Positions 6,024-54,464 are shown, counted from the stretch's first letter. The stretch is 64,000 bases of DNA from Squalus acanthias (GCA_030390025.1 CM059431.1:158350001-158414000), one strand, 5' to 3'. Notes: generated by a model from the letters alone, not told the origin. Numbers and translations are program-made.

Positions 6024-6841
6024 GGCCAGGTTTTTCGATCGCAGGAATCCCGGGTGCGCAGGTTTGCAATCTAGAAAAATCTACGCCCTTATCTTCGGGT
6101 TCCGGGGACGCACACGATTCCTATCCTGGGCCTCTCCAATCTCCACTTGCGCAGGGCCCTAATATCCCAGAGGCACAGGCAGATTACAGGGAGCATGGGT
6201 TCATGTTGGCCATGCGGAGCTAATCAAAGTAGGGAAACTGCATTCATACACTTGACAGGAAGACCTTTCAAATATATGAATGGAGATCACCCCAAAAACA
6301 TAGTGGCCCAGAAATTCCTTTCGCAGGCCGTCCGCGGGCGGAGGACTGCGATCTGGAAAAATCTGTGCCTGTACCGGAGGGGTCCCGGGAGGCGCAGAGT
6401 TCCGTTGCTTGGTCTCTCCAAACTTCCGGTGCGCAGGGCCCACGTATCCCAGAGGCGCAGGCGGTTCGCAGCGTCCCTGGGATCACGTAGGGAGCCAATC
6501 AGAGAAGGGATTCTCCCTTCATACATTTGACAGGAAGACCTGTCAAATATATGAATGGAATTCACCCCCAAACATAGTAAAAGCACGCCTTAGCCCTGCT
6601 TTTACCAGGCATACGATTTCTAATGGTTTTCTGCAGGCGTGGGTTCTCCAGACAGCGGAACTATCCGTCCGCAGAGGACCTTCTCCAGGCTAGGCGTCCA
6701 ATCTGTCAAGAGCATTCTTGACAGATCGGAAATTACGGATTTCAGCGCATGCGCTCGGCATTCCAAAAACCGGCATTTCCGATGTCCCTGCGGTTGTGTA
6801 CACAGCGCGTACACACCCGTAAGGATCGGAATATCCGGCCC
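6024..6841. mobile_element. MITE C, related to MITE A, with an internal ~280-bp duplication; other copies at 13693-14510 and 34835-35653
   Basis: Imperfect TIRs ggccaggtttttcgatc...gatcggaatatccggcc(c) flanked by ttaat/attaa. Shares internal motifs with MITE A (cgcagggccc, tatgaatggagatcacccc, cagcgcatgcgc). Confidence 0.65.
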
Positions 6842-12225: not shown

Positions 12226-14771
12226 CTAAAAAAATATTGCAATCATATTGAACAGAGTATTTTACAAAATCAGCGAAGAAACGTCGTTTTTCTTTCTCCC
12301 TCTCTTTATGGGAGGAATGAATAGAAAAGCTCACAATCAGGTGACCAAAATCTATGTCAACGAGATAAGTTATAAGGAGCGTCTCTGAAAAGCAGAGAAT
12401 GGCAGACGGCCGGAGAGAATTACAGAGTTAATTCCAGAGTTTACGACCGAGGCAGCACAACGCACGGCTACCTATGGTGGCCTGAAGAGAATCGGGGTTG
12501 CGCAATGGTTCAGAATTTGATGAGAGCAGAGATCACGGAGGATTGTAGGGCTGGAGGATATTGCAGAGATAGAGAGTACCAGCGTTGAGTCACCGATGGA
12601 AGCTGAATTTTCTCAACTGATATGAAAAAATGTTAAGTGCCAAATAAAAGGGGAAAAGTCAGATTTCAGGAACATGCTTCGTGCAAAATGAAGCATTATT
12701 TGTTGTTAGTAACAGCAATGTTCTGGAAAGGTCACAACGTGCTTTTTGAAACACAAACTGCACAGATTGTAAAACAATGCGGGTGAAATTAGAATCGGCC
12801 AGTCGCATGACAGGTGCTGATGGCGAATGGTCGGCTCGTGTTACACGCATCCGTATTTCTTTACCAGTGATTGCAATTAGAATTCCGTTCATTTCAAGTA
12901 TCATTCATCGAAACAGCAGCACAAGCTTATCAGTCAATCCTTCATCTTCTATATGAACCATTTGCTTTGAATACCTGAAGAGTCCTGTCTTGTGAGTAAC
13001 TATTTTATTTGAAGTGTTTATGAAATGTGATCATTGTCCCGAATTCTGTCACCTGCCAATCACCAAATTCTTAAACTGTCAACGTTTTACCTTCTGCTCG
13101 TTAACCTCTATGTTTCTTTAATTTGATTTATATAATCAACCCCCTACATTCAATTTGTAAATCTACTTTTAACTTACTTTTCTATGCACATCCAAGTAAT
13201 TCTTGTATGTGCTCCACTCGTTTTATAATCGTGTAATTCCTATATATCGTATCGCAATCATTTCCTACTCGGTTCCTTCGTATTGATTCCCGACGGAATT
13301 ATCTGATCCATTCCGTCCCAATATATCTGGGCTAGTGTGTTCTTGATTTGTTGAAATTGCTTATCCTGTACATATATATTGTTTTGATTTACTGTTCTTC
13401 TGAATTCTAATTATATCATTGCTTCTTAGATATCCGTTATCCGTTTGCAGAAATGGATCCAATACTCATTCCTTCCCTGTTGTTCTGGAAACGTACCCAT
13501 CTGTCTCACGTCCTGGATCCGTGGCAGATAGCACACTCCCTCTTCCACCCGTACATCACTTCTATACTGTAGATATTTAAAGTCATCCATATCTCTGATA
13601 CCCTCGCTAAAATGTCTCCATTTTTTCAATATATCGCTTCCTCAATTCGTGACCCACCACTTGTGCATGATAATGAACTCCTCATAGTTAATGGCCAGTT
13701 TTTTCCATCGCAGGAATCCTGGGTGCGCAGGTCTGCAATCTGGAAAAATCTACGCCCTTAACTTAGGGATCCCGGGACGCACACGATTCCGATCCTGGGC
13801 CTCTCCAATCTCCACTTGCGCATGGCCCTATTATCCCAGCGGCACAGGCAGATTACAGGTTGCCTGGGATCATGTGGGCCATGGGGTCCAATCAAAGTAG
13901 GAAAACTACATTCATATACTTAAGAGGAAGACCTGTCAAATATATGAATGGTGATCACCCCAAAAACATAGTGGCCCAGAAATTCCTTTCACAGGCCGCC
14001 CGCGGGCGGAGGACTGCGATCTGGAAAAATCTGTGCCTGGACTGGAGGGCTCCCGGCGGGCGCAGAGTTCCGTTGCTTGGTTTCTCCAAACTTCCGGTGC
14101 GCAGGGCCCACGTATCCCAGAGGCGCAGGCGGTTCGCAGCGTCCCTGGTATCACGTAGGGAGCCAATCAGAGAAGGGAATCTCCCTTCGTACATTTGACA
14201 GGAAGACCTGCCAAATATATGAATGGAATTCACCCCCAAAACATAGTAAAAGCACGCCTTAGACCTGCTTTTAGCAGGCAAAACATTTCTAAGGGTTTTC
14301 TGCAGGCGGGGGTTCTCCAGAAAGCGGAACTGTCCGTCCGCAGAGGACCTTCTCCAGGCTCGGCGTCCAATCTGTCAAGAGCATTCTTGACAGATCGGAA
14401 ATTACGGATTTCAGCGCATGCACTTGGCATGCCTGAAACCGGCATTTCCGATGTCCCTACGGTTGTGTACACAGCGCGTACACACCCGTAAGGATCGGAA
14501 TATCCGGCCCATTAACGCCAAGTTCCCAGACGTGCGCTAACATTAACACGTAGGTGTTAATGTCTTCATATCATAACTTCCTAGAGCATCATCAGACAAT
14601 CGCTACATTCAAGTAACCAGCTTTATTCACCATGCTTTATTAATATATGTGTTACGTAACTTCAGGAAATATTCGAAAAGAAATCAGATTGACATCATGG
14701 ATGAGACTCGGAATTTTATTTTTAATAGGACATGATTGCTGTCATGACAGGAGATGCCGGTAATGTTGATT

Positions 14772-15508
14772 ATTGGTTATTGCTAGGGGGATAGAATATA
14801 AAAACAGGGAGGTATTGCTGCAGTTGTATAGGGTATTGGTGAGACCGCACCTGGAGTACTGCATACAGTTTTGGTGTCCATACTTAAGAAAAGACATACT
14901 TGCTCCCGAGGCAGTACAAAGAAGGTTCACTCGGTTAATTCCTGGGATGAGGGGGTGGACATACGAGGAGAGGTTGAGTAGATTGGGACTCTTCTCATTG
15001 GAGTTCAGAAGAATGAGAGGCGATCTTATTGAAACATATAAGATTGTGAAGGGGCTGTATTGGGTGGACGCGGTGAGGATGTTCCCAATGATGGGTGAAA
15101 CTAGAACTAGGGGACATAAACTTAGAATAAGGGGATGCTCTTTCAAAACTGACATGAGGAGAAACCTTTTCACTCAGAGGGTGGTGGGTCTGTCGAATTT
15201 GCTACCCCAGGAAGCTGTGGAAGCTACTTCATTAAATAAATTTAAAACAGAAATAGACCGTTTCCTAGAAGTAAAGGGAATTAGGAGTTACGGTGAGCGG
15301 ACTGGAAATTGGACATGAGTGAGTTCGGATCGGTCAAGGCCCTGTGGATGGCGGAGCGGGCCCAGGGGCCGAGTGGCCGGATCCTGCTCCTACTTCTTGT
15401 GTTCTTTAGAGATGAGGTTGGATCAGATAAGCCATGATCTCATTGAATGGTGGAGCAGGCACGAGAGGGCCGATTGGTCTACTCCTGCTCCTATTTCTTA
15501 TGTTATTA
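14772..15508 (+). mobile_element. 5'-truncated CR1 LINE (RT C-terminus and 3' UTR), present only in unit 3
   Basis: ORF 14773-15318 has LYRVLVRPHLEYCIQFWCP...RRMRGDLIETYKI...TRGH motifs; CR1-type 3' ends; candidate TGATT duplication at 14767-14771 and 15509-15513. Confidence 0.92.
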
Positions 15509-20622: not shown

Positions 20623-21480
20623 CTAAAAAAATATTGCAATCATATTGAACAAAGTATTTTACAAAATCAGCTAAGAAACGTCGGTTTTGTTTCTCCCTCT
20701 CTTTATGGGAGGAATGAATAGAAAAGCTCACAATCAGGTGACCAAAATCTATGTCAAAGAGATAAGTTATAAGGAGCGTCACTAAGGAGCAGGGAATGGC
20801 AGACGGCCGGAGAGGATTACAGAGTTCATTCCACAGTTTAGGACCGAGGCAGCACAACGCACGGCTACCAATGGTGGCGTGAAGAGAATCGGGGTTGCGC
20901 AATGGTTCAGAATTTGATGAGCACAGAGATCACGGAGGATTGTAGGGCTGTTGCAGAGATAGAGAGGACCAGCGTTGAGTCACCGAGGGAAGCTGAATTT
21001 TCTCAACTGAAAGGAAAAATGTTAAGTGCCAAATAAAAGGGGAAAAGTTAGATTTCAGGAATATGGTTCGTGCAAAATGAAGCATTAATTGTTGTTAGTA
21101 ACAGCAATGCTCTGGAAAGCTCACAACGTGCTTTTAGAAACTCGAACTGCACAGATTGTAAAACAATGCGGGTGAAAATGGAATCGGCCATTCGCATGAC
21201 AGGTGCTGATGGCGAATGGTAGGCTCGTGTTACAGGCGCCAGTATTTATTCCCATTGATTGCAATTAGAATTCCGTTCATTTCAAGTATCATTCATCGAA
21301 ACAGCAGCACAAGCTTATCAGTCATTCCTTCATCTTCTATATGAAACATTTGCTTTGAATAACTGTATAGTCCTGTCTTATGAGTAACTATTTTATTTGA
21401 AGTGTTTATGAAATGTGATCATTGTCCCGAATTCTGTCTCATGCCAATCACCACATTCTTAAACTGTCAACGTTTTACCT

Positions 21481-23122
21481 TGTAGAATTCGCAATATATC
21501 GCGATTTTATAATAAGGAGAAAACACAGAGTTTCGTTCAAACAGCTTTTATTTCAGCAGAATGCTGTCAGGTTTTTCAAAGTGGACACAAGCAGCCTGTA
21601 AAATGGCCGCCGCACCTCGTGGCAGAACATTCTAGACTTTTCGACAGGCAGACAAGATGGCGTTCCAATAAACATTTGTGCAAGATCGATTAAGATTCAG
21701 CACATTGAAGATAATACACGAGACATTGTGGGTTTGCAGTATACACATAAATACTGAAATCGGTCTCCCAGGTACGAATGAAAGCTATTGTACCAAGTAA
21801 TCAAGGGCCCATCCAAAGACATTAATATGTAAAATCCCAATGACTCTACGATGAGAGAGCCGTTAGCGGGTAGTTATACAAAACACTTGGAAGCCCCAAA
21901 ACCCCTCCAGGGAGAACACCGACCGATTTAGCAATGAGAGAAATATTAACAGGTACTCAGGCATTTACGAGTAGCACCGAAACCCATTAAGAACGGAGAT
22001 CACCCATACAAGACATTTGAGCGCCAAACCCAAACAAAAGAAAGGCATTAAGGTTGGGCGGGAAACGGAAGATTTTGTACTATAATTACAAGCTCCAACC
22101 GTCCATTTTTCTCTTATCCGATCGACTCGTATCCTCGTGGCTGCTCCTGTGTTTTGACTCGCCGTCTTGTTCCTGCTTGCTTGGTGTCTCTTTTAAAAAG
22201 ACTGTTGAACTTTGTGATCCGTTCGGATCCACCTCGTGTCGTGTAACGAAGACCTATGTTGGTAACTGGCATCGGAACCGAAGGCCCGAGATGAGATGAG
22301 ATGAGATGAGATGAGATGAGAAGAGAGGAAGACCATACTTATCGCCATGGTCAGTAAGCCCCGACCGCGCCAGTAGGTCGAATAGCCAAGTTTCCTTGCC
22401 AGGGAGACTTCTTTGAACTTGCAAGAACGGACCTCGGAAGATCCTCCAAGAAGATATTGACTGGTCTGTGAAACCCATCAGGATAGTGCCTGCTAAACCA
22501 ACCAACACAGATCTTCATCACAGCAGACGTTCCAGCCTGCTAGCCGGAGCAGAAGCAAGTAAACAAGTGGGACCAGGAGACCCCCTGATCGACACGTGGG
22601 TGCTGCGGTAAAACCATCCGATCAGCTACTCGGAATTTCTCCGAGTTATCACGAGTGGTGAGCATGAGTCTCGAATCCTACGAATCTAGCTAGGACAGAT
22701 ATTGATAGGGGAGGGTTTAAGTATTAAGGATACTTGTAATGTGTGCCCCTATTTACGGTGTGTCGTTCGTTCCTCGTTTCCCTAGAATTAGCTATATAAC
22801 TGCGTGTAAGATTGTACTGTCATTAATCTGTGCTTATGACATGTATTTCGTAATCTTAAATATCATGCAATAAAGATTTTCCATTTCGTACCATTCAACC
22901 GAGTCTACATGAGTTTCATCTCCATTACTGCTCTCGCATCTAAGTCCAGTGTCTCGAACCGTAAGGGCGAGTGATTCGAACCACTCACAGGTGTGTCTAG
23001 TGCTCCCAGACTGGTTGGAGACCAGAACAGGCAACAAGGCCTAAACCCGCACTGACATACAGGCTGCACAGAGCCGCGCGAATCTCACAGGCTGAGAGAC
23101 ACGCACGCCAAAATCCCTTACA
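21481..23122 (+). repeat. 5' LTR (1642 bp)
   Basis: tgtagaattc...cccttaca. GC box ~22056, TATA-like tataatta ~22081, (ATGAG)6 at 22291-22320, AATAAA at 22869-22874. Confidence 0.97.
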
Positions 23123-23126
23123 GAAA

Positions 23127-24935
23127 ATGGCGACCGCGGCAGGACACTGGCAGCGAGAGGGTAGTGTGTTAGACTTTGGAATGACTGTACGAAATGTTAT
23201 GCAGGAAAAGATAGCAGATTATGTGTTCGGAAAGGTTAATCTAACTAAGAAATGGATAAGTGAATTGTTAGCGGATAAAAGTCCACTAGAGGCAGCCGAA
23301 AGGTGGACGGATAGTAAAGAACATAAAAAGACACTCGAGAAAGCAGTCTGGCTAATGTGTTACAAAAGGCAGGTCCAGATTTCAAACCAGACCATTACAG
23401 CGCTAACAGCTCGAATCAGGCATTTAGAGGGAGAAATGGATGAGAAGGTTTCTGGAGGGGAATTGCTCATTAGGAATTTAAGTGCGGTGCACCAAGAACG
23501 CCAGGAAATCTCCAGTCACCATAAAACAAGGATAGATTACCTCGAGTGCCAGGTCACTGAGGCAAAGTTAAATGAGGGCAGGTTAAAGGAACGATGTGCC
23601 CGCCAAGCTGCCCAGATAAGAACTCAGGAAGAGAGCTTAACGGGGGTTCGGGCGGAATATAAGTTGGCCCTTGAGGATAAGTTTCAGGGAGCCGATCATA
23701 GCGCCTGCCAAAGGGAGATAGAGCACCTCAAAAGGGCCGTGAACAAAGCGCACGGCATGGTGTGCCTTATCAGTCCGTCAGCACACCAGCCGCTAGTAAA
23801 TGAGGAGTTTGACAAATCCCCACCAAGTAAAGCAGAGGAAGTATTAGCCACTGCGCCCTCCGCGCCACCCAGCTATTCGGAAACCTGGGTAAGGGAGGAA
23901 GCAATGGAAGAAACGAAAGAGCCCATTGAGAAAGAAATGGAAAAGGGACCGTTGTATCCAGTAACGGGTATAAAAAGGGGCCCAAACAGAAACGGTGGGG
24001 AGGAACCAGGGGATCTCCTCGGCCAGCTTGTGTTGCCTCACAGCTCACACCAGCTGAGAGTTAAGATAAATCACGTACGGAAGCTAACCGAGTCAGACGA
24101 CCCTTCCGTACATTTCAGAGAAGTTGAGCAAACCGCAGCCATCAACGGCTGCGACGATGGGGAAACAGCAAAAATGCTGTTATTTTCGTTAGGCAGTTCA
24201 ATCCTTCAGTGTCTCTCGGGTGAGAGCAAGAGGGGAACCAAGACTTATGAGGCATTAAAGAATGAGGTCCTGGAAGTGTTGGGGGCGGACGATGAAGGTC
24301 CGTTTGCTAGAGTGGGACAGACAGTGCAGATGGAGGGAGAACCCCCGAAGGTTTTTGCCGACAGGCTGTGGCCAGTATATCAGCGCAGCTGTCTAGGTGC
24401 GCCAGAGCGCGACGATGTGGAGGGCGCCAGTTTAGCTCATTGGCTTAGGTGCATAATAGCTAACAGTTTACCAGCCGTCAGAGAGCAGGCAAAAGCATGG
24501 TTTGATCCCAATGACCCCAACATTACGGAAGAGTCGGTCTTGAATCGACTCACGTTAGGATATCGCAATATAAGGGGTATGGCAACACGTCCCCTTAAGG
24601 GAAAAGTACATGAGGTACGACCCGCAGCCCCATATCAAAGAGAGTGGCATCAGGAGGGTAATCGCGCTCCACAGGCAAGTAATGCTTGTTACGGGTGTGG
24701 GAAGACAGGGCACTGGCGCAAGCATTGCAGGAACCCTTGGAAGGATTCCAAGGATAAAAATCCCGCAGCCCGAGCCCAGACGCCTGTCCCAGCTAGGGAA
24801 GCTGGTGCACCCACCCCTCCCGACGACATCGAAGTAGTGTTAGGAGCCATGCGCAGTTTATTGAGTGCACATGGAAAGGTGGCGGTTGCAACCGGCCCCG
24901 TAGGTGCCGCAGGACCGTCTAATAGAGCCCCATGA
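23127..24935 (+). CDS. gag: Gag (602 aa): coiled-coil N-terminal half, PSAPPSY late domain, capsid-like region, one CCHC zinc knuckle
   Basis: CYGCGKTGHWRKHC knuckle; position after the PBS; heptad-rich region at about aa 85-210. The true start may be a later Met. Confidence 0.92.
   Translation: MATAAGHWQREGSVLDFGMTVRNVMQEKIADYVFGKVNLTKKWISELLADKSPLEAAERWTDSKEHKKTLEKAVWLMCYKRQVQISNQTITALTARIRHLEGEMDEKVSGGELLIRNLSAVHQERQEISSHHKTRIDYLECQVTEAKLNEGRLKERCARQAAQIRTQEESLTGVRAEYKLALEDKFQGADHSACQREIEHLKRAVNKAHGMVCLISPSAHQPLVNEEFDKSPPSKAEEVLATAPSAPPSYSETWVREEAMEETKEPIEKEMEKGPLYPVTGIKRGPNRNGGEEPGDLLGQLVLPHSSHQLRVKINHVRKLTESDDPSVHFREVEQTAAINGCDDGETAKMLLFSLGSSILQCLSGESKRGTKTYEALKNEVLEVLGADDEGPFARVGQTVQMEGEPPKVFADRLWPVYQRSCLGAPERDDVEGASLAHWLRCIIANSLPAVREQAKAWFDPNDPNITEESVLNRLTLGYRNIRGMATRPLKGKVHEVRPAAPYQREWHQEGNRAPQASNACYGCGKTGHWRKHCRNPWKDSKDKNPAARAQTPVPAREAGAPTPPDDIEVVLGAMRSLLSAHGKVAVATGPVGAAGPSNRAP
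23128..23145 (+). promoter_or_regulatory. Primer-binding site, tRNA-Arg(TCG)
   Basis: TGGCGACCGCGGCAGGAC lies 5 nt after the LTR and is the 18-nt complement of the vertebrate tRNA-Arg(TCG) 3' end (...GTCCTGCCGCGGTCG-CCA) as I recall it. Confidence 0.85.
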
Positions 24936-27900
24936 CTAGAACCCGCGCAGCCCGTCTACCTGTGTCCGCTCAGCTATGATGCGTGGAAGCGACCTTTGCT
25001 GGAGATGGAGGTAGAGAAACAGAGGGGTAGTTATTTGTTGGACACGGGAGCTTCTTGCACCATAATCCATACAGATAGCCCTTTTGACTCGCCGCTATCT
25101 ACCAGGGTCCCATTCACGTTAGCGGGGTTCACAGGAAAAGAACAGGCTGGCGCGTTCTCCCTTCCGCTATCCATTCGTTTGGGAGCACTTCACCTTAAGT
25201 GGAAGTGCATACTGATGGAATGGCAGGAGGGGGGTGGAAGAGGTATCCTCGGGTCCGATCTTCTATCAGGACACGGGATCCTCGTGGACCTCAGAAATCA
25301 CTGTCTCTGGGGGGCTAAGGGTGAAAAAGGCGAGGTAGTAGTGATTCCGGGGGAGGAAGAAACAGCGGTCCTGTGTACCGTGCAGCCATCCGGAGGCTAC
25401 GACCTCGGGCTTATGGTCGCAGATGTCCCAACGGACATGCAAACGTACGTGTCAGATAATATGCACGCGTTTGCAACCCACAAGCACGATTGTGGGAGGG
25501 TTACCGGGTTTGAGGTCAGCGTAGATGGGGACCCCATGACCCGGCCCCAAAAACAGTATAACTTCCCCAAAGAAGCAGAACCCGATATGGAGACAGCAAT
25601 GTCCTCCTTGGTGCAGCAGGGCGTGTTGAGGCCGATAGCCACACACGTGAACTCCCCATTATGGCCGGTTAGGAAGCCGGATAATTCGTGGAGAGCCACG
25701 GTGGACTACAGAGTCCTTAACAGTAACATTCCCGCCTGCGCGCCCACGGTAGCAGCAGTTGCTGACCTAATAGGGAGCATCCCAGCGTCCGCGACCACGT
25801 TCACGGTGCTGGATATTTCGAACGGTTTTTGGTCCATCCCGCTGAGGCGAGAGGACCAGTACAAGTTTGCCTTTACTTTCAAAGGGCAACAGTACACATG
25901 GAACTGTCTGCCACAGGGTTTCCACAATAGCCCCAGTATTTTCCATCAGTGTATGGCAGGAAGTTTAAGGGAGTTTAGTCAGCCCAATCAGATAGTGCAG
26001 TACGTGGATGATTTGCTCCTATTTACGGACTCAAGGGAGGAGCATGGACCACTGCTGGACGAGTTATTGGAGCTGCTAGCGAGAAAGGGTTTTAAAATAA
26101 ATACTAAGAAAGCACGTATCGGTCAGCAGGAAGTAAAATTCCTGGGACTGACCATTCGCGCTGGGGAAAGAGCCATAGACAAAGCTAGGAGGGAGTCGGT
26201 GCAAGAGTTACCGATTCCCAACAACATAAGGGGTGTGAGGTCCTTCTTGGGACTGACCGGTTACTGCAGGGATTTTATCGAAGACTATGCGGCCACAGCG
26301 GCGCCGCTCCTCCGACTCCTCCATAAGGGAGTGGAGTGGTCTTGGGACGAGGGCTGCCAAGCAGCCTTCGAGAAGTTAAAAAGGGATCTGCAGACCGCGC
26401 CAGCCTTAGGGGCCATAGATGGGGGGAAGGAGTTTTTCCTGGAGGTAGCTGCCAGCGGAGACAGCTTGAGCGCTGTGCTGCTCCAAGAGCGTTACGGCAA
26501 GCTGAGGCCGGTTGTCTATTCATCCAGGGTGTTAACGGATGTGGAGAGAAGTTTCTCCAATTGCGAAAGGCACCTTTTAGCCACGCATTGGGCTGTGAAA
26601 AGATCAGCGATCTTCACAGGGCTCTCTCCTATCACTCTCCTCACACATCACACACCAACTAAGATGCTTCTAGATGGGAGGATTAAAGATGGGACCGTAA
26701 GCAGCGTGCGTATTGCGCGTTGGACCCTTCTTCATTCCCAGATGGATCTTAAAGTAAAATGTCTTTGCGAACCCAGGCTTGCGGCCAATTTGGTATACCC
26801 CGGTACAGCCCACCGGTGTTCGGTGGAAGGGGTGTGGGATGTCAACATAGGTTTACGGGCCGGGATACATCCCACAGGGTGCGAGATTTATGTTGATGGG
26901 TCTAGCACAGTATCTGCTGGCGAACGACTCACAGGGTGTGGAGTTTATGACCCTGCGGCAGACCTTGCCCTGGCGATCAAGCTCCCTAGCACCATGAGCG
27001 CACAGCAGGCTGAGCTGTCTGCCGTGGTGTACGTTGTTACCCACCCAGACATTTTCCCAACCCCATACACGATTTGCTCGGACAGTATGTTCACCTGCAA
27101 TTCGTGTACGGAATACCTGGCCATTTGGTCCCGCAGTGGATACACCTCCGCGGACGGGCGACCTTTAACGGTGAAGCCCTTGCTGGAAAAGATCTTAGCA
27201 GCAGCAGTAGGGGAGGAAGGAGAGATTTTCATCCATAAGGTGAAAGCTCACTCCTCCACAGAGCCCCGTGGGGAGGGCAACCAGCAGGCGGATGCGCTAG
27301 CCAGGGAAGGTGCCCGCAACGGCATTTTCTGGGACCCCTATGGGACCAGACCCATAGCAGCGATCCAAGGCAGGGACGGGAATCCCGGGAACACCAGGGT
27401 AGCATTGCCCCTAGACCTTAAGACCGTCCAAACCCAGGATCCCGCCCTAAAAGCAGTCCTAAAAACCATTGCTGAGGGGAGGCAGGTAGAAGGTCCGTAC
27501 AGTACGGCAACCCTCTCAGTTAAGGAAGGCATGCTGTTCCGCGAGGAGCAGTGGGTTGTGCCGCAGCAGCACAGGAGGGAATTCCTCCAGTTGGCTCACG
27601 AGGGACCAGGGGCAGGGCACCCCGGGCCCGAGGTTACCTGGCAACGGGTAGAGCAAGCGGAATGGTGGCCAGGGCTCAGGGAACAAGTCTGCGAGTTCTG
27701 TGCAAACTGTCTTGTGTGCGCTGCAAACAACCCAGACCCCCAGAAAAGGAAGGTGCCCATGGGACACGTAAGAAGGGTAGAGTGACCATGGCAGTCGATA
27801 CAGATCGACTATATAGGACCCCTGCCCACCACCCAGGGAGGCTATAAATACTGCCTCGTCTTAGTGGATGTGTTTTCCAAATGGGTGGAAGCCTTCCCCT

Positions 27901-29444
27901 GTCGAACAGCTACGGCACTGGGTACTGCAAAAATCTTGGTCCGGGAAGTGTTCTCGCGGTGGGGACTCCCCCGTTTTGTGGAGTCAGACCAAGGGAGTCA
28001 TTTCACCGGCCAGGTGATGCAGAACACCCTCATGCTTTTGGGCATTGAAGGGAAGTGGCACGTAGCACACAATCCCCAGTCATCCGGGATTGTTGAACGT
28101 ATGAACCGGACCCTGAAGGAGAAATTGAGGAAAGAGACTAGGAACTCGCCCCAAAAATGGGCGGAAGTTCTGCCTTTAGTCCTCATGGGGGTCCGATGCA
28201 GTCAGTCAAAAAGTACGGGGTACTCCCCGCATGAGGTGATGACTGGGAGGATCATGCGAACCCCCACCCATGTGCTAGCGCCGGTGCTCACTGAGGGTCA
28301 GCTCCAAGAGATAAGCAGGGACAAGTTCGCCCAGACCCTCTTGGAGCGCCTAAAACAGGTTTATGAGCAGGCGGCTGGGAACATGGGAAGGCAGCATCAG
28401 GGCAATCGCTTGTTGCTGGAACCCCGCAAAACGCGGGAGTGGGAAGTAGGAGACCAGGTCATGGTCAGAAACTACGCCAGAGTAGGGAGTCTGGAACCAC
28501 TGTATATGGGACCCTACAACATTGTAGATAAGGTGAGTCCCATGGTATACGCCGTAAAAGTACCTCGGCGCACTAAGTGGTTCCATGTAAACCAGTGCAA
28601 ACTGTACAAGCCAGGTGCGCAAGGGAAAACCACAGGGGTAAACCCCGCGAGTGGGGAAGCACAGCCCCAGGTAGGACCACAAGGCACACAGGCAGGCAAA
28701 GCAGCTTGCATCAGGGGAGGAGACATCCTGGAAGATCACGAAGCATTTTTGTGGGGATGGGAGTCAGATGAGGATAGTGATGAAGGCGAGTGGTTTTTGG
28801 GAAACGTAAGGAACGTTCCCATTTTAGGTATAGGGAGGACACGGGCTGCAGATAGAGATCCACACAGGGTGGACACACAAGCTGCAGGTCCCGAAGACAG
28901 GAGGGAGGAGCTAGGGGAAGCGGAGCCAGCCGCTGTGGGAACACAGGGAGTGACGGTGAGGACCCCCGAGCCCGAACCGCCCGCTTTGAACGTCCCGCCC
29001 TCGGGGGAGGCAGAGATCGCGAGTGAAGGCCCGCCTACTGGGCCGAGCAGGGCGGAGCCACAAACTGCGAGCCCCGAGTTAGGGAGGCGGAGTCAGCGGA
29101 GGCGGAGCCAGCGACTGTGGTGGAACCACAGGTCGTCCCGATGGAAGTCTCGGAACCCGGTCCGTCGGTCATGGGATCCCTGCCCCTGGCAACTCCCCGT
29201 AGGTCAAGTAAAGAACCCCAGCCCAAGAAGATGTGGGTATGGCCCCAGACTGTCCCAAGGCGTAGACTCAAGGTTAAGGCAGCCCAGATACAGCCCGGCC
29301 CCATCGCAGCAGCAACAGGCTGCGGCAGATCAGAGGAAGGGGTCAGTGCAGAAACAGGCTGCGGCAGATCAGAGGGAGGGGTCAGTGCAGAAACAGGCTG
29401 CGGCAGATCAGAGGAAAAGGTCAGAGCCCTCCCACAGTCGGTAA
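24936..29444 (+). CDS. pol: Pol (protease-RT-tether-RNase H-integrase), in frame with gag; internal TGA at 27783-27785 and probable 1-bp deletion at ~29083 (restored end 29473)
   Basis: LLDTGAS protease; LPQGFHNSP and YVDDLL RT; degenerate RNase H (FFLEVAASGDSLSAVLLQ); second RNase H (IYVDGSS, AQQAELSA, CSDS, VKAH, GNQQADALA); HHCC; IDYIGP, SDQGSHF and GIVERMNRTLK integrase core; GPY module. Confidence 0.95.
29313..29419 (+). repeat. 39-bp tandem repeat (~2.7 copies) in the integrase C-terminal extension
   Basis: aacaggctgcggcagatcagagg(a/g)aggggtcagtgcaga repeated; encodes TGCGRSEEGVSAE in the restored frame. Confidence 0.9.
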
Positions 29445-29771
29445 GAGCTCGCAGCAGTTTTCTCAGAATTTAAAGGGGCCGCCCTGAGAACGGGCGGCAC
29501 TGTACAGTTATAAGTTTTAAGTTTTAAGTTCATAGTTCAAGTTTAAGTTTATAGTTTAAGGTTATAAGTTTATAGTTTTAAATAAGGTTAAGTTTGTAGT
29601 TTTAATTTTAACAGAAAATGATAAAATGATGGGAGCTTTAAAGATAGGTTTAGTTAAAGTTTATTTAGTGAACATTGAAGATTACGTGAGGCGAGGTCAG
29701 GGGACCCGCTCACCCTTCACAAAAGCCAGAGACTCTTGCGAGGCTGGCTACCTCATTCTATCTGATCACAG

Positions 29772-32135
29772 GAACCAAGGAAGGATGGAACGAATCTAGT
29801 ATTGCTCGCGGCAATCGGATGTGGATTGGCCTATCGAGGCCGCACCAAGGATGTCGTGGTGTTCGGATGCTCCGGGGACACGGCCCCCATCGCGGTGGAT
29901 GGGACCAGAAGACGGGAGGCAGAGGAGACCACCACCTATTTCCACAAGGGAAGGTGGCCAGGATGGCTGGGAACGAACTCGACGGAGTATTCCAGCACAT
30001 CGGGGTTTGCCTACCAAGAGACTTCTTTAATGTGCCCCAAAGTAAGGATCATCGCACCCAGGATCAGCGTCACCGTCGGCAAACGGATTTGTTTGACTTG
30101 TAGTGGGAATGTCCCATTGAGCCGATGGTGGTGGCTGCGAAAGCTGAGCAAAACTATGAGGAACTCTTCGGTCGAGTGGGAACGACTGGGTAATAATACC
30201 CATCGGACAATTATGGGGACAAACGGACAAGTGAGAGTCTGTTGGGACAAATGGTGGGAACCGGATGAGGGAATTTATGTATGTATGTGGGGGTCAAAGT
30301 ACCCTTGCCCCAAAGGCATATCCATATTTTTCATTAATCAGTGGCAGGATAACGGACAGGGGATGAGGTGGGATGCGAGCACCAGGGGGTGCGGAGCCCC
30401 ATACTCTTCGATCCCGGTAAATGCCACTGAGCTCATTATGCGCCCACGCAAAGCCCCGCCCACGATTCCGGTGGTTCTAGCTGAGGAGGAAGGGTGCCCT
30501 AAAACTAGTAAGGGACCCGGGAATGGTTTGGTACTGGTCCCCACAGACCAGATACTATTTCAGGGGGTACATTACGCGGTGGCCTCGGTGATTTTAAATC
30601 TCACCGAGGTGCGGTTACCAGAGTGGTGCCCCAAAAAGACGGAACAGTTGTATCAGGTCCTGTTGACCAAGATGTTCAGACAATTTTACGAATTCCATTT
30701 CGCGGAAATTGATAAAACAAGTTTGTACACCGCACCACATGAAGTTTTGAATCAAGTAGGGAGGCAAAGAAGGGGTTTAGTGAAAGACACGTTCAGTGCT
30801 TTTAACACGGGTACATCTGTGGTCAACGCTCTAGACAGTGTGGAGCTGCAGACCCAGATTAATGGTTTAAAGACACAATTAAAAGACATTCTAACAGATG
30901 AGAATAAAGTGGTAGGGTCGGGTTTACACGAGGACCAATCCATGACTCTCCATCTAAAGGAAATTATAGCAGAGTTAGAGAAACATGCAAAGACGGTAAA
31001 TGCCCTGATTAGGGAAGATCGGAATGCATCCGATCAAGCTGCGCAGAACGAGGTGTGCGTGCTTTACGGGGCGTGGTTACTCGGCGAGGGCCGCAGTAAT
31101 TTGGAGGATTTAAAACAAGGTTTGGTCCCGTCCTGGATAAGTAACAAACACCTGCGGGCGCTCCACCCTTTTCAGAACGCATTAAGTCCGTGCCAGCTTA
31201 GGCTAGCTTCAGAAGCTTACCCAGTCCCCGTGGACTGCGGACGATCAAACCATACTATCATGGGTATAGTTTTATGTATGCCGGTTTTGGGCGACACAGC
31301 AAAGCCCGCCCCGGTGTATCGGGTAGAGAACATTGGTGTCATTCAGGGGGGAGCCCACATTCGCTATGCAGCGGTTCCACCTTACGTCATCCGCTGGGAG
31401 CAAACGATGACAGGTACAGATCTCTCTGGTTGTCGTGGCAGGGGAGCACACATAATACTGTGTCCCCAGCACTTGAATGCCTTTTTAACACCACAGTGCG
31501 GGTTCAGAACGGCTGGCGCCAAGTCCATGAATTGCACCATGGAGGCAATGGCACAAGATCATGTGCCTCCGCAGGTAGCATACATCGGGGGTGGAACATA
31601 TTGTGTTACCACTGCAGCGCAACACTACCAGCATGGAAACCGTAGCCGGTGTCCGGTGAGTGACAGCAGTTTCTGTTTCAGACCCAGGGCGGAAGTTCAA
31701 GTAGCACAACAGCGAATTGTCCCAATCCCTGAACCATCCACTGTTCATCTTACAGTAAAAGAGAACTTCACCGACTTGCAGCGATTCGTCGCGCATTTTG
31801 GATACCTCATTCCCCCTCTCCCTGAACACCTCACCAAGCTTTTAAAAGCCGTCGCGGTGTCACAGAAACATTTTTACACATTAGAACAGAAAACTGTCGA
31901 AATAGGGACAGACATTCTGGATATAGTAGTTCCACCATGGTGGAATCTGTTCACCAATATTGATATGCCTTCATGGATCAGAATAGCCTCCCACATTTTA
32001 GTCGTATGCCAAGTTTTTATTGTAGTGTACCTATTGGTCGTACATTGTAAAAGAGACAAACGCCTCACTAAGCATGAAAACACGGGAGAGTGGCGAGAAC
32101 GTTACGTACGCGTGCACGATGAAAGCACCGTGTAA
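29772..32135 (+). CDS. env: Env: signal-like N-terminus, Ig-like domain, furin site RQRR (30762-30773), fusion peptide and heptad region, Cys-rich F-protein-like region, transmembrane helix, short tail
   Basis: Frame open from 29766; NLVLLAAIGCGLA; CLTC...WWW...DEGIYVC; RQRR|GLVKDTFSAFNTGTSVVNALD; TDLSGC...IILCP...C...NCT...YIGGGTYCV...C...FCF; ILVVCQVFIVVYLLVV. Confidence 0.88.
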   Translation, partial: EPRKDGTNLVLLAAIGCGLAYRGRTKDVVVFGCSGDTAPIAVDGTRRREAEETTTYFHKGRWPGWLGTNSTEYSSTSGFAYQETSLMCPKVRIIAPRISVTVGKRICLTCSGNVPLSRWWWLRKLSKTMRNSSVEWERLGNNTHRTIMGTNGQVRVCWDKWWEPDEGIYVCMWGSKYPCPKGISIFFINQWQDNGQGMRWDASTRGCGAPYSSIPVNATELIMRPRKAPPTIPVVLAEEEGCPKTSKGPGNGLVLVPTDQILFQGVHYAVASVILNLTEVRLPEWCPKKTEQLYQVLLTKMFRQFYEFHFAEIDKTSLYTAPHEVLNQVGRQRRGLVKDTFSAFNTGTSVVNALDSVELQTQINGLKTQLKDILTDENKVVGSGLHEDQSMTLHLKEIIAELEKHAKTVNALIREDRNASDQAAQNEVCVLYGAWLLGEGRSNLEDLKQGLVPSWISNKHLRALHPFQNALSPCQLRLASEAYPVPVDCGRSNHTIMGIVLCMPVLGDTAKPAPVYRVENIGVIQGGAHIRYAAVPPYVIRWEQTMTGTDLSGCRGRGAHIILCPQHLNAFLTPQCGFRTAGAKSMNCTMEAMAQDHVPPQVAYIGGGTYCVTTAAQHYQHGNRSRCPVSDSSFCFRPRAEVQVAQQRIVPIPEPSTVHLTVKENFTDLQRFVAHFGYLIPPLPEHLTKLLKAVAVSQKHFYTLEQKTVEIGTDILDIVVPPWWNLFTNIDMPSWIRIASHILVVCQVFIVVYLLVVHCKRDKRLTKHENTGEWRERYVRVHDESTV

Positions 32136-32571
32136 TCGGAAAATGGCGTCACTCCCGCTCGCCACGTGCGCCGCGGAAGTTTGTACTCGATCATGATTTT
32201 CAAAGATTGTAAATACGTTGGGAACTCGACATGTTTTAAGAGTTGGTGTTGATTATTTTGGTGATGGTGTTATAGTTAAAAATGATTGTTTGGTTTTGGG
32301 TTTTGTTTTTCCTTTCCCTGAATAAAAGATGAATATACAGGTGATACGAGAGGCATCGGCCTAGTTACGCCGGGAAAGAAAACAAGTAGTGTAAGTTTAA
32401 AGGCAAATAATGCCTACGGTGATATAAAATGTAATTTTCTTGGGAAATAAGGACGACACAGAGACCCTGGCTAGGTTAAAGTTATGGGATTAATTTGCTG
32501 GATTCGGAGAAAATCGAGATAATATTGCTCACCACTATTATTTTTGATACGATAAGCGGAGTTATTCGCAT

Positions 32572-32584
32572 CAACAGGAGGGAC
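32572..32584 (+). promoter_or_regulatory. Short polypurine tract
   Basis: caacaggagggac directly before the 3' LTR TG. Confidence 0.55.
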
Positions 32585-34226
32585 TGTAGAATTCGCAATA
32601 TATCGCGATTTTATAATAAGGAGAAAACACAGAGTTTCGTTCAAACAGCTTTTCTTTCAGCAGAATGCTGTCAGGTTTTTCAAAGTGGACACAAGCAGCC
32701 TGTAAAATGGCCGCCGCACCTCGTGGCAGAACATTCTAGACTTTTCGACAGGCAGACAAGATGGCGTTCCAATAAACATTTGTGCAAGATCGATTAAGAT
32801 TCAGCACATTGAAGATAATACACGAGACATTGTGGGTTTGCAGTATACACATAAATACTGAAATCGGTCTCCCAGGTACGAATGAAAGCTATTGTACCAA
32901 GTAATCAAGGGCCCATCCAAAGACATTAATATGTAAAATCCCAACGACTCTACGATGAGAGAGCCGTTAGCGGGTAGTTATACAAAACACTTGGAAGCCC
33001 CAAAACCCCTCCAGGGAGAACACCGACCGATTTAACAATGAGAGAAATATTAACAGGTACTCAGGCATTTACGAGTAGCCCCGAAACCCATTAAGAACGG
33101 AGATCACCCATACAAGACATTTGAGCGCCAAACCCAAACAAAGGAAAGGCATTAAGGTTGGGCGGGAAACGGAAGATTTTGTACTATAATTACAAGCTCC
33201 AACCGTCCATTTTTCTCTTATCCGATCGACTCGTATCCTCGTGGCTGCTCCTGTGTTTTGACTCGCCGTCTTGTTCCTGCTTGCTTGGTGTCTCTTTTAA
33301 AAAGACTGTTGAACATTGTGATCCGTTCGGATCCACCTCGTGTCGTGTAACGAAGACCTATGTTGGTAACTGGCATCGGAACCGAAGGCCCGAGATGAGA
33401 TGAGATGAGATGAGATGAGATGAGAAGAGAGGAAGACCATACTTATCGCCACGGTCAGTAAGCCCCGACCGCGCCTGTAGGTCGAATAGCCAAGTTTCCT
33501 TGCCAGGGAGACTTCTTTGAACTTGCAAGAACGGACCTCGGAAGATCCTCCAAGAAGATATTGACTGGTCTGTGAAACCCATCAGGACAGAGCCTGTTAA
33601 ACCAACCAACACAGATCTTCATCACAGCAGACGTTCCAGCCTGCTAGCCGGAGCAGAAGCAAGTAAACAAGTGGGACCAGGAGACCCCCTGATCGACACG
33701 TGGGTGCTGCGGTAAAACCATCCGATCAGCTACTCGGAATTTCTCCGAGTTATCACGAGTGGTGAGCATGAGTCTCGAATCCTACGAATCTAGCTAGGAC
33801 AGATATTGATAGGGGAGGGTTTAAGTATTAAGGATACTTGTAATGTGTGCCCCTATTTACGGTGTGTCGTTCGTTCCTCGTTTCCCTAGAATTAGCTATA
33901 TAACTGCGTGTAAGATTGTACTGTCATTAATCTGTGCTTATGACATGTATTTCGTAATCTTAAATATCATGCAATAAAGATTTTCCATTTCGTACCATTC
34001 AACCGAGTCTACATGAGTTTCATTTCCATTACTGCTCTCGCATCTAAGTCCAGTGTCTAGAACCGTAAGGGCGAGTGATTCGAACCACTCACAGGTGTGT
34101 CTAGTGCTCCCAGACTGGCTGGAGACCAGAACAGGCAACAAGGCCTAAACCCGCACTGACATACAGGCTGCACAGAGCCGCGCGAATCTCACAGGCTGAG
34201 AGACACGCACGCCAAAATCCCTTACA
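32585..34226 (+). repeat. 3' LTR (1642 bp)
   Basis: Same length as the 5' LTR; about 14 substitutions counted by eye and no indels seen. Confidence 0.97.
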
Positions 34227-37200
34227 ACCTTCTGCTCGTTAACCTCTATGTTTCTTTGATTTGATTTATATAATCAACCCCCTACATTCAATTTGTAAAT
34301 CTACATTTCATTTCCTTTTCTGTGCACATCCAAGTAATTCTTGTATGTGCTCCACCCGTTTTATTATCGTGTAATTCCTATAAATCGTATCGCAATCATT
34401 TCCTACTTGGTACCTTCGTATTGCTTCCCGACGGAATTATCTGATCCATTCCGTCCCAATATGACTGGGCTCGTGTGTTCTTGATTTGTTGAAATTGGTT
34501 ATCCTGTACATATATATTGCTTTGATTTACTGTTCTTCTGAATTCTAATGATATCATTGCTTCTTAGATGTCAGTTATCCGTTTGCAGAAATTGATACAA
34601 TACTCATTCCTTCCCTGTTGTTCTGGAAACGTACCCATCTATCTCACGTCCTGGATACGTGGCAGATAGCACACTCCCTCTTCCACCCGTACATCACTTC
34701 TATACTTTAGTTATTTTAAGTCCCCCATTATCTCTGATAGCCTCGCCGCTAAAATGTCTCCATTTTTTCAATATATCGCTTCCTCAATTCGTGACCCACC
34801 ACTTGTGAATGAAAATGAACTCCTCATAGTTAATGGCTAGGTTTTTCGATCGCAGGAATCCCGGGTGCGCAGGTCTGCAATCTAGAAGAATCTACGCCCT
34901 TACCTTCGGGTTCCCGGGACGCACACGATTCAGATCCTGGGCCTCTCCAATCTCGATTTGCGCAGGGCCCTATTATCCCAGAGGCACAGGCAGATTACAG
35001 GGAGCATGGGATCATGTGGGCCATGGGGAGCCAATCAAAGTAGGGAAACTGCATTCATACACGTGACAGGAAGACCTTTCAAATATATGAATGGAGATCA
35101 CCCCAAAAACATATTGGCGAAGAAATTCCTTTCGCAGGCCGCCCGCGGGCGGAGGACTGCGATCTGGAAAAATCTGTGCCTGGACCGGAGGGGTCCCGGG
35201 AGGCGCAGAGTTCCGTTGCTTGGTCTCTCCAAACTTCCGGTGCGCAGGGCCCACGTATCCCAGAGGCGCAGGCGGTTTGCAGCGTCCCTGGGATCACGTA
35301 GGGAGCCAATCAGAGAAGGGAGTCTCCCTTCACACATTTGACAGGTAGACCTGACAAATACATGAATGGAATTCACCCCCAAAACATAGTAAAAACAAGC
35401 CTTAGCCCTGCTTTTACCAGGCATACGATTTCTAATGGTTTTCTGCAGGAGGAGGTTCTCCAGAAAGCGGAACTATCCGTCCGCAGAGGACCTTCTCCAG
35501 GCTCGGCGTCCAATCTGTCAAGAGTATTCTTGACATATCGGAAATTACGTATTTCAGCGCATGCGCTTGGCATGACTGATAACGGCATTTCCGATGTCCC
35601 TGCGGTTGTGTACACAGCGCGAACACACCCGTAAGGATCGGAATATCCGGCCCATTAACGCCAAGCTCCCAGCCGTGCACTTACATTAACCATATCTTCA
35701 TATAATAATTTCCTAGAGCATCATCAGAAAATCGCTACCTTCAACTAATCAGCTTTATTCACCATGCTTTATTAATATATGTGTTACATAACTTCAGGAA
35801 ATATTCGAAAAGAGATCAGATAGACATCATGGATGAGACTCGGAATTTGATTTTAAATAGGACATGATGGCTGTCATGACTGGAGATGCCGGGAATGTTA
35901 TGTCTCTGAGTAATGGGCAGAAGAATGAACGTGAAGGCTTAGAGTTGCGTAACCCATGGACTGGATGAATTTTGCGAGTGCTTGGTGAGACGTAGAATAA
36001 TGCAGATATTTTGAGGTTGTTAATTATAAATAATAACTGTGGCAGGGAAGTTGGTAGATAGGCAGGTAGAATCAGTCATGCAGAGAAGTTGGAAGGAGAA
36101 AATTAATGGAAGCAACGACTTGGATATGTTCAGGAGAAAGTTCTAGAAATTGGTGCCACCGGCAGTGACTCAAATGAATCGTCTCGTTTAATTAAAATGC
36201 ACGTCACCTTTGCTAAAGAACGGACAGAATTTTGCGGCCGTGAACGACAGCTTATTTTAAATATGTCAGTTAATTTCTTTTCCTGAGATTAGATATATGT
36301 GGCTTTTAGATATTCTATCTAGCTCCAGGATATCCATTGGGTATTTGCTGAGTAGGCGTGATGCTTGTGCTGCTAGTGGTATCTTATTCAAATATTAATT
36401 ACAATATTTGGCCCGTCATTTCCGTTAGGAGGCTTCCTGCGTCCGCATGCCTCCTATCGGGAAGAAATCTACGCCCTTCCCTGAGGGCTCCCGAGGAGGA
36501 GCCATTTCCGATCCTGCGCCTGTCCACAGTAGAAATGCGCAGGGCCCACCTGATCCCAGGGACGCTTGCGGAGATCGTGAGCCCCGGAGATAGGTGGACA
36601 GGCGAGAGAATAGAAGGGAATCTCCGTTCATACCTTTGACAGATAGACCTGTCAAAGGTATGAATGGAGATCACCCCCAAAACAAATCAAAACAATAAAT
36701 ACATTTTTACAAAGTATCGCGTTTTTATAATGAGTAACATTTATATTAATTTAAATATTTTAAACAAAAGTTTCATGCTTTGAAAAAGTATTTAAAGATT
36801 TTTAACGAGCTAAAATTAAACTTACCTTATTTAGAATTACTTTCAAATTATAAGTGAGTGAAAAAAATTAATATTTTTTTTACTTTTTTAAGCTCTTGTG
36901 CTGGGAAAAGCAGGCCTTACGCCTGCTTTTACCAGGAGTACGATTTTTAAGTGTTTTCAAGAGCGGATGTCCTGCAGCAAGCGGAAATCTCCACCCGCAG
37001 AGGCCCTTCTGAAACCGGCATTACCGATGTCCCTACGGGTGTGTACACAGCGCGTACTCACACGTAGGCATCGGAAAATACGAGCCATTGGCCCAGAAAT
37101 TAAACATCGATGGTTCCCGCGGGGGTAAGGATTCCCCGCGTAATCGCACTCCGCCCCGACCTTTTGTTTCGGGCCCACACGAACTTGAGTTTCAGGGCCT

Positions 37201-39040: not shown

Positions 39041-40065
39041 AGGATACCCATCCATGACCCCACTACCAAACATCAAGCCACCGTTTCCAAGACTGTCACT
39101 GACCACATCTCCTCTGGAGATCTTCCCTCCATGGCCGCCAACATCATAGTTCCCCAACCCCGCACAGCACGTTTCTACCTCCTTCCTAATATCCACAACC
39201 CATCGTTACAGCCTGTTTTTGTCCCACGGAACTTATCTCTTCCTATCTCGACTCTATTTTTTCTCCCCTTGTCCAGTCTCTTCCCACCTCTATCCGCAAC
39301 TCTTCCGACGCCCTCCACCACTTTAGCTGTTTCCAGTTTCGTGGCCCCAACCGTCTCCATTTCATTATGGACGTCCAATCCCTCTACACCTCCATCTCCC
39401 ACAAGGATGGCCTGAGGGCGCTCTGCTTCTTCCTTGAACAAAAGCCGAACCAGTCCCCTTCCACCAACACCCTCCTTCGCCTGGCTGAACGTGTTCTCGA
39501 ATTGAAAACCTTCTCCTTTGACTCCACTCACTTCCTCCAAATTAAAGTTGATGCGATAGGAACCCGCATTGTTCCTGGCTATTCCTGCCTTTTCGTTGGG
39601 TATGTGGAACATTCGTTGTTCCAGTCCTACACAGGTCTCTTCCCTCACCTCTTTTTCTGGTACATTGATGACTGTATTGGTGCTGTTTCCTGCTCTCGCC
39701 CTGAACTAGAACATTTCACTCACTTTGCTACCAATTTCCACCCTTACCTCATCTTCACATGCTCCATCTCCGACTCCTCCCTTCCCTTCCTCGACTTCGC
39801 TGTATTCATCTATGGGGATAAGCTTTCGACAAACATTCACTATAAGCCCACTGACTCCCACCCCGCTTCCTGTAAGTACTCTATTCTATTCTCCCAGTTT
39901 CTCCGTCTCCACCGCATCCGCTCTAACGATGCCACCTTCTAAAGAAATGTTTCCGACATGTCGTCCTTTTTCCTCAACCGAGGATTCCCCTCTACTGTAG
40001 TTGACACAGCTCTTGACTGTGTCCGTTCTATTTCTCGCACTTCTGCTCTCACCCGTTCCCCTCCA
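39041..40065 (+). mobile_element. Decayed Penelope-like retroelement RT fragment
   Basis: PRTARFYLLP.IH, MDVQSLYTSI.H, WYIDDCIG, LPFLD, HYKPTD and YSILFSQFLRLHRI motifs, with frameshifts. Confidence 0.88.
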
Positions 40066-54460: not shown

Positions 54461-54464
54461 ATAT

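Follow-up and report, generated by a model that had tools for sequence, protein, structure and literature searches.

A large, recently amplified retrovirus family of Squalus acanthias with a canonical reverse transcriptase and a predicted F-type envelope

Lokiretroviruses have a reverse transcriptase (RT) sister to that of canonical retroviruses and an envelope protein (Env) resembling paramyxovirus fusion (F) proteins. In the available text of Wang & Han 2021 (PMC7947760) this F-like Env sets them apart, and independent env origins are preferred for lokiretroviruses and canonical retroviruses. Here we analyzed a provirus at positions 21481-34226 (plus strand, order LTR-gag-pol-env-LTR, where LTR is the long terminal repeat) in the sequence of a 64,000-nucleotide stretch of Squalus acanthias DNA (GCA_030390025.1 CM059431.1:158350001-158414000; hereafter the window). 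The provirus shares with lokiretroviruses, as far as that publication describes them, the gag-pol-env plan, a dual RNase H, a Ty3-like capsid, a basic cleavage site in an Env of the F type and a similar integrase, but its RT falls inside the canonical retroviruses. Its Env also carries a head of ~230 residues with a probable immunoglobulin (Ig) domain that, compared by eye, the Loki-Xtr Env lacks, and its host belongs to a class in which Wang & Han found no lokiretrovirus.

An F-type Env is also known from foamy viruses, whose Env is a retroviral protein on a paramyxovirus/pneumovirus F scaffold with a receptor-binding module (Fernandez et al. 2024, PMC11468914); in the sections of that paper available to us the module sits between the subunits, whereas the head of the window Env is N-terminal. 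Also among the closest known viruses are snakehead retrovirus (SnRV) and the SnRV-like or clade Huo endogenous retroviruses (ERVs), which the available parts of five papers report from elephant shark as well as from coelacanth and frogs (PMC4422223, PMC6001957, PMC4977317, PMC12193657, PMC13517186). These viruses, which include the CmiERV lineage I of the elephant shark, resemble the window provirus in their deep canonical grade, their aquatic vertebrate hosts and an in-frame gag-pol with stop codon readthrough. The elephant-shark SnRV-like ERVs are described as few and old, whereas the window family comprises thousands of young copies. SnRV-like-grade ERVs in cartilaginous fish and F-type Envs in lokiretroviruses and foamy viruses are therefore already known. 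The literature searched, which included few subscription papers and also covered the available parts of PMC9040795, 10.1101/2023.10.26.564294, PMC10435555, PMC4131045, PMC9447858, PMC12287698 and PMC12583693, contained neither an F-type or Ig-headed Env in SnRV-like or class III ERVs nor this family. It likewise contained no instance of the combination of a canonical RT, an Ig-headed F-type Env, a UGA-CUAG readthrough site and thousands of young copies.

We consider it probable that the window provirus belongs, as a defective copy, to a large family that was amplified recently, with an RT among those of canonical retroviruses and a predicted F-type Env with a probably Ig-like head, and with likely Env-dependent reinfection as its mode of spread.

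Position of the reverse transcriptase

Reference rows for the phylogeny were database matches labeled by eye against the RT alignment in the Wang & Han supplement. P0016 agreed with SnRV across a stretch of ~55 residues and was labeled accordingly; the RT signature of lokiretroviruses served to label P0014 and P0190. From 202 RT-bearing rows we selected 62 for an RT-only tree (mixture model, quick search) and 35 for a tree of RT plus tether (LG+G4, full search), the latter with two lokiretroviruses and one SnRV and neither with a foamy or Odin reference. The RT+tether tree placed the window within the canonical retrovirus clade at 100/99, with the two lokiretrovirus Pols outside, and the RT-only tree placed it within the same clade at 97 SH-aLRT. 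The published topology, lokiretroviruses outside canonical retroviruses, was reproduced by both trees. Grouping of the window with lokiretroviruses was rejected by two approximately unbiased (AU) tests (p=0.0011 each), and the lokiretrovirus RT signature is missing from the window RT when judged by eye against the published alignment.

The closest Pols are frog and coelacanth proteins annotated as 'NYNRIN-like' (P0002-P0007), which joined the window in one clade (84/94) of the RT+tether tree. Over RT and tether they are 49-52% identical to the window, compared with 37% for SnRV and 35-37% for lokiretroviruses; across Pol the identity is ~40%, and the literature searched does not name them as a virus lineage. 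In the same tree class-I-like rows formed their own clade without the window, and the gamma-type CX6CC motif was not seen in Env, so the provirus does not fit a gamma/epsilon (class I) ERV. Nor does it fit an env-bearing, errantivirus-like Ty3/Gypsy element, given the position of the RT inside the retroviral clade and the dual RNase H. The provirus has the features of canonical Retroviridae, namely an RT that falls in the retroviral clade and is separate from those of Ty3/Gypsy elements and lokiretroviruses, LTRs, a tRNA primer-binding site (PBS), a polypurine tract, a target-site duplication (TSD) and the gag-pol-env order. From the description of lokiretroviruses it has the dual RNase H and an F-related Env with a basic cleavage site, and it lacks the sister position of the RT. 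A dual RNase H is common to all retroviruses and so is not diagnostic of lokiretroviruses. A further character of lokiretroviruses is an integrase near CGIN1/NYNRIN; in the window provirus the nearest Pols bear the 'NYNRIN-like' annotation, while the integrase identities are 38% to a lokiretrovirus, 43% to a frog relative and 31% to SnRV. The window RT lies among canonical retroviruses, in the deep class-III/SnRV-like grade and nearest to the frog and coelacanth 'NYNRIN-like' elements, and the provirus is not a lokiretrovirus.

That the provirus is a close member of the SnRV clade proper, an endogenous SnRV relative with the SnRV genome plan, appears doubtful. SnRV-like ERVs are known from the hosts named above, and the AU test leaves a group of the window clade and SnRV unrejected (p=0.11). 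However, this clade appeared in neither tree, and the RT+tether identity to SnRV is just the 37% already given. In the available descriptions the LTR of SnRV measures 518 bp, the leader ahead of gag is noncoding, the Env tail is 136 aa long, and there are accessory open reading frames (ORFs) and UAG-GGC readthrough, whereas the window provirus has a threefold longer LTR of 1,642 bp, no leader before gag, an Env tail of ~30 aa, no accessory ORF found and UGA-CUAG. Membership of the Spumaretrovirinae is spoken against by the in-frame gag-pol with its readthrough motif and by the CCHC knuckle of Gag. Spumaretrovirinae express Pol apart from Gag, and their Gag is not known to have a CCHC box.

A predicted F-type envelope

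The env region (29627-32135) contains a long open frame of 789 aa (29766-32135), which we modeled with AlphaFold2 on 29 homologues (mean pLDDT 60.8, pTM 0.45, core blocks 70-96; pLDDT and pTM are the program's confidence scores). Residues 250-694 of the model (30513-31847) matched the F protein of human parainfluenza virus 3 in Foldseek (E 2.8e-11). Comparison by VIA gave Z 12.4 over 324 residues with a paramyxovirus/pneumovirus F (root-mean-square deviation 29.9) and Z 12.3 over 285 residues with Nipah F (root-mean-square deviation 5.5), and paramyxovirus/pneumovirus F proteins were returned throughout the fold searches of the PDB, among the matches listed. A furin site, RQRR, lies at residue 333 (30762-30773), and hydropathy and the model place a transmembrane helix near residue 740 (31983-32039), followed by the short tail. 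The model predicts a fusogen of the paramyxovirus F type, in keeping with the first-pass annotation of this DNA, which had noted that lokiretrovirus Envs resemble Mononegavirales fusion proteins. Sequence searches by themselves did not reveal the F link: Pfam matched 0 families at E<=0.1, PDB phmmer gave only weak Ig matches, the 29-sequence profile had no match in the PDB, and the best ESM Atlas match scored 0.84. In a fold search of BFVD, the Envs of the walleye epsilonretroviruses WEHV-1 and WDSV matched the model (E 8e-11 and 2e-8), which suggests a predicted F-type Env in exogenous fish retroviruses too. No SnRV Env was among the 50 BFVD matches listed, which is evidence neither way.

The ~230 residues ahead of the F core form the head. 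It includes an all-beta segment at residues ~93-175 of the frame (30042-30290) with a C...W...DxGxYxC pattern and a pLDDT of 54-78. This segment gave weak matches to antibody light chains (PDB phmmer, E 0.6-1), and Pfam Ig_3 reached E 0.26 in the window Env and 0.0085 in a homologue; on the model, the head is probably Ig-like. In the coelacanth and eel homologues the F core starts at residue ~28, so that the head is modular. In the gene model of the closest named Pol, P0003 from the frog Pyxicephalus, Pol is followed by a signal peptide and then by a domain that resembles Ig (Pfam Ig_3 E 0.012). Over 98 aa this domain shares 51% identity (E 3e-29) with the head of the F-type Env homologue P0152. 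Because P0003 runs into a P0152-like head, the same Pol lineage appears to carry an Ig-headed F-type Env in a frog too, on the basis of this single gene model.

Homologues of the window Env occur across several shark orders, a skate, coelacanth, eel and frogs. The closest named relatives are those of Rhinoraja, a skate (74%), and Pristiophorus, a sawshark (56%), with further ones in Mustelus, Chiloscyllium, Heptranchias, Heterodontus and Scyliorhinus. For a host gene of the same genome, the three stretches that match best share 79-89% identity with the Heterodontus protein, and three more share 59-63%. Some long Env-like ORFs are annotated as genes, P0132 in Chiloscyllium punctatum, P0131 in Mustelus, P0138 in Pelodytes and P0166 in Mantella (a 16-member cluster), and are candidates for co-opted envs or for additional active families. 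The shark gene models P0122, P0127, P0130 and P0158 (Niban, ZFP2, CDHR5, fbxo15) are fused to Env pieces, through exonization or as annotation artifacts.

How this Env came to be joined to a canonical RT bears on the origin of retroviral envelopes. We tentatively propose that sharks, rays, coelacanth and frogs harbor a canonical retrovirus lineage, so far undescribed, whose Env of Ig head and F core is self-sufficient, and that thousands of recent germ-line reinfections took place in Squalus acanthias. Taken together with the foamy, lokiretrovirus and walleye-virus Envs, such a lineage would make the F-type fusogen the ancestral retroviral envelope, which the surface/transmembrane (SU/TM) type later replaced. 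Alternatively the provirus may be a recombinant in which a canonical RT acquired its env from an F-bearing element, a lokiretrovirus or some other, perhaps together with the integrase, and the F-type Env would then not be ancestral; we regard this as possible though rather unlikely. Consistent with recombination, the window integrase is nearer to that of lokiretroviruses (38%, 209 bits) than to that of SnRV (31%, 114 bits), with 43% identity to its frog relative, which fits the domain shuffling described by Wang & Han, in whose available text RNase H and integrase were replaced repeatedly (PMC7947760). F-type Envs across metazoan retroelements are also reported in the accessible part of a Ty3/gypsy preprint. 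A frog, however, shows this Pol lineage paired with an Env of this type, and Env homologues are spread so widely that any capture would be ancient. F-like Envs also belong to foamy viruses (PMC11468914, in the sections consulted) and, by fold search, to the walleye epsilonretroviruses.

The linkage of a canonical RT to an F-type Env, in a shark-type genome and also in a frog, breaks the dichotomy between lokiretrovirus and canonical Envs, and the F-type envelope is likely much more widespread in retroviruses than published work states. Together with the foamy Env structure, this opens the question of where retroviral env originated to testing, through comparison of Env and RT trees.

Family size, selection and spread

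Copies were counted by exact motif searches of the genome, which give lower bounds; reversed-pattern controls returned 0. LTR-PBS junctions number at least 2,808 in the genome, and the motif of the RT active site occurs at least 1,051 times. The junction of a pol-less form was counted at least 936 times and the U5 motif 5,026 times. The U5 motif was detected in 27 of 40 sampled LTRs and the LTR-PBS junction in 17 of 20 copies. We estimate a family of ~3,000 proviruses, ~0.8-1% of the 3.7 Gb genome, a number far above the 100-700 ERV insertions that the available literature gives for the elephant shark. The search for further copies and solo LTRs that had been proposed at the outset thus yielded the former in large number, and comparison of U5 motifs with junctions suggests, as a rough estimate, that the latter are a minority.

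Apart from the window itself, the best 40 of 2,666 env candidates are 98% identical, and 20 of the 39 other top env matches, on large contigs, were taken as a copy sample. LTR pairs within these copies differ by 0.06-1.28% (median 0.36%, 17 resolved), and LTRs of different copies are ~90-98% alike. The TSD is 4 bp in 10 of 13 resolved copies and 3 bp in one; two others are tandem, and seven of the 20 copies were unresolved. At the place of the polypurine tract, a single 15-mer stands ahead of the 3' LTR in 16 of 17 resolved copies. Near-identical DNA was present in sequencing runs of five organisms, with contigs from three spanning all 30 bins. Contigs of two presumed RNA runs cover the provirus, although contigs cannot show transcription, splicing or level, and a scan of viral contigs found no relative. 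The provirus belongs to a large, recently amplified endogenous retrovirus family.

Nine of the 20 sampled copies lack pol through a common deletion corresponding to window positions 24968-~28585, with ~240 bp in its place and the frame kept into the integrase tail. This pol-less subfamily (loci L007-L040) keeps gag and env, and the ~240 bp, which follow the readthrough site, encode a coiled-coil-like repeat. Some copies seem to be tandem with a shared LTR (L001/L002 and L021/L022; G000:C24 24.17-24.18 Mb). L009/L010, on another contig, has the same TSD, ACCT, and flanks similar to window 21475-21480/34227-34232, by chance, target preference or insertion in a repeat.

Pairwise pN/pS, the ratio of nonsynonymous to synonymous differences per site, was 0.10 for env (210 pairs), 0.09 for env among the nine pol-less copies and 0.12 in the head, compared with 0.19 for pol and 0.42 for gag. 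The env gene is under purifying selection, and this strong constraint, which includes the pol-less copies, argues that spread needed Env; the family likely spread in an Env-dependent manner, by reinfection or by cell-to-germ-line transfer. An amplification that was mainly intracellular, by retrotransposition in cis and in trans with env as a passenger derived from a small number of recent source elements, is improbable in our judgment. It would suit the very high copy number and the pol-less copies, numbering at least 936, which show trans-mobilization, and the short divergence may leave env open passively. Against it, constraint is stronger on env than on either pol or gag, in pol-less copies too, and nearly half of the sampled copies lost pol yet kept env, though this sample was chosen by env.

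Several observations weigh against our overall interpretation, which remains that of a defective member of an amplified canonical family with a predicted F-type Env and likely Env-dependent spread. The branch position inside the canonical retroviruses is weakly supported (84/94), the RT+tether tree contains only two lokiretroviruses and one SnRV, labeled by eye, and no foamy or Odin reference, and the window integrase is nearer to lokiretroviruses than to SnRV. The Env model has low overall values (mean pLDDT 60.8, pTM 0.45), and the Ig-like segment folded alone gave a pLDDT of 41.7 and a best Z of 4.5, so that the Ig fold was not reproduced, an outcome that is uninformative in itself. Sampling from the 40 best env matches favors well-kept env, and because pairs share history the pN/pS values mirror selection in a few source lineages. 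Identical LTR pairs, which would point to present-day activity, were found in 0 of 17 copies.

From the anatomy and standard retrovirology, the LTR would yield a genomic RNA in which the primer site contains the first AUG and U5 would form the entire leader. Gag-Pol would arise by readthrough of UGA-CUAG, host tRNA-Arg(TCG) would prime reverse transcription, and the integrase would insert the provirus with a 4-bp duplication. On the Env model, furin would cut at RQRR and the F core would fuse membranes; hypothetically the Ig-like head binds a receptor, and particles would exit the cell and re-enter germ-line cells. Copies without pol but with gag and env would be mobilized in trans by pol-bearing copies, and the window copy would have lost its autonomy after insertion through an integrase stop and an env frame break. 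The family offers thousands of datable copies, an env on which purifying selection acts and a satellite subfamily that lacks pol.

The window copy, its primer site and predicted gag-pol readthrough

The first-pass annotation had described this copy as a young, nearly intact, lokiretrovirus-like provirus. A lokiretrovirus in a new host class, which the dual RNase H, the F-like Env, the Ty3-like Gag, the integrase identity and, by eye, a resemblance between the start of the window F core and the start of the mature Loki-Xtr Env would fit, is very improbable given the RT, the defining marker, inside the canonical retroviruses, the two AU rejections, the missing RT signature, and a Loki-Xtr Env whose F core, by eye in the available supplement, directly follows the signal peptide with no ~230-aa head. 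The RT phylogeny that the annotation itself had proposed groups the element with canonical retroviruses, in a grade known from elephant shark, which in substance removes the lokiretrovirus label. Its list of lokiretrovirus hosts (lampreys, bony fishes, amphibians and reptiles), with no chondrichthyans, agrees with the consulted part of the Wang & Han supplement, in which five chondrichthyan genomes have no positive mark and the Orectolobiformes row shows three screened and none found (PMC7947760). The suggestion of a recently active member, possibly in a new host class, survives in that the retroviral family is genuine, was amplified recently and has an F-like Env, without being lokiretroviral.

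The copy is a real provirus of this family, but 'nearly intact' needs qualification by two breaks. An in-frame stop at 27783-27785 lies between the zinc-binding domain and the core of the integrase, and env is interrupted by a frame shift close to its 5' end, which leaves the frame 29766-32135 with no Met ahead of the signal-like stretch. The copy is defective, although either break may be an assembly error. Splicing of env as the cause of the missing start codon was dropped because all 20 other sampled copies have an in-frame Met there. 'Young' holds only relatively: the two LTRs differ at 14 positions with 0 gaps (Kimura two-parameter distance 0.0086, or 0.86%), and divergence is lower in 14 of the 17 other copies whose LTR pairs could be resolved. 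The distance corresponds to 1.9 million years at 2.2e-9 (mammalian rate) and to 19.5 million years at 2.2e-10, the shark rate assumed by Han 2015 in the part of that work consulted.

The 5' LTR (21481-23122, plus strand as are all proviral features below) and the 3' LTR (32585-34226) are 1,642 bp each, both with TG...CA ends, and a short polypurine tract (32573-32584) adjoins the latter. The 4-bp TSD that had been noted is present as ACCT at both ends (21477-21480 and 34227-34230). A TATAA at 22793 and an AATAAA at 22869 in the 5' LTR suggest a U3 of ~1.3 kb. The gag ORF (23127-24935, 602 aa) opens with an ATG at 23127, 4 nt past the LTR end, and ends in a TGA. The earlier observation of a coiled-coil Gag is matched by a heptad-rich region at residues ~70-170 in a crude scan; Gag also has a PSAP motif, one CCHC knuckle and capsid features like those of Ty3/retrotransposon Gag (ESM score 0.92). 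An arginine primer site and a coiled-coil Gag are reportedly present in SnRV as well.

In pol, the first part (24936-27785), which runs up to the premature stop, holds the protease (~24984-25268), the YVDD motif of RT at Pol residue 356 (26001-26012), the tether (RT_RNaseH, ~26343-26729), the second RNase H (RNase_H, ~26880-27314) and the integrase zinc-binding domain (Integrase_H2C2, ~27558-27734). The second part (27786-29444), in the same frame, holds the integrase core (rve), a GPY/SH3 module at the integrase C-terminus and an acidic, Pro-rich tail of ~270 aa with a 39-bp repeat present three times at 29309-29424. Domains were assigned by Pfam, and the YVDD RT, tether plus second RNase H and GPY-bearing integrase seen at first reading were all recovered. 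So was an Env with no ordinary TM motif, since CX6CC was not seen and the Pfam search above matched no retroviral TM family. No plus-strand ORF of at least 60 aa with an ATG was present 3' of env in the provirus, and an Rfam scan of the window gave no match.

The PBS (23128-23145, 18 nt) begins 5 nt after the LTR, is overlapped by the gag ATG and is the complement of the 3'-terminal sequence of host tRNA-Arg(TCG). The PBS-matching motif occurred 433 times genome-wide in tRNA context, mostly, among the occurrences listed, in 1,623-bp tandem arrays, and ARAGORN called Arg(TCG) at all three loci tested. Arrays of the 1,623-bp units lie at G000:C26 ~39.0-41.9 Mb (L048, L049), with tRNA-Ser(GCT) adjoining in both scanned loci, and represent a very large supply of the predicted primer.

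The gag stop is TGA followed by CTAG (24933-24939), in frame with pol, a predicted type II readthrough site. TGA-CTAG was present in the window and in 19 of the 20 other copies, the remaining one having TAA-CTAG. In the available part of a 2026 review (PMC13517186) the type II motif of alphaviruses and human genes is of the UGA-CUAG type, and the retroviral readthrough contexts listed there do not include it. From the conserved sequence, Gag-Pol is likely made through UGA-CUAG readthrough.

Around the provirus, the window contains copies of one interspersed repeat (6075-6530 and 34850-36958) and decayed RT fragments (14770-15318, 39190-39942, 44607-45233 and 49086-49736) that by eye resemble non-LTR elements (CR1/L2, Penelope-type). 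A 27-bp minisatellite of ~353 copies (70% matches) with extreme GC/AT skew extends from 54464 to 63887, nearly to the end of the window.

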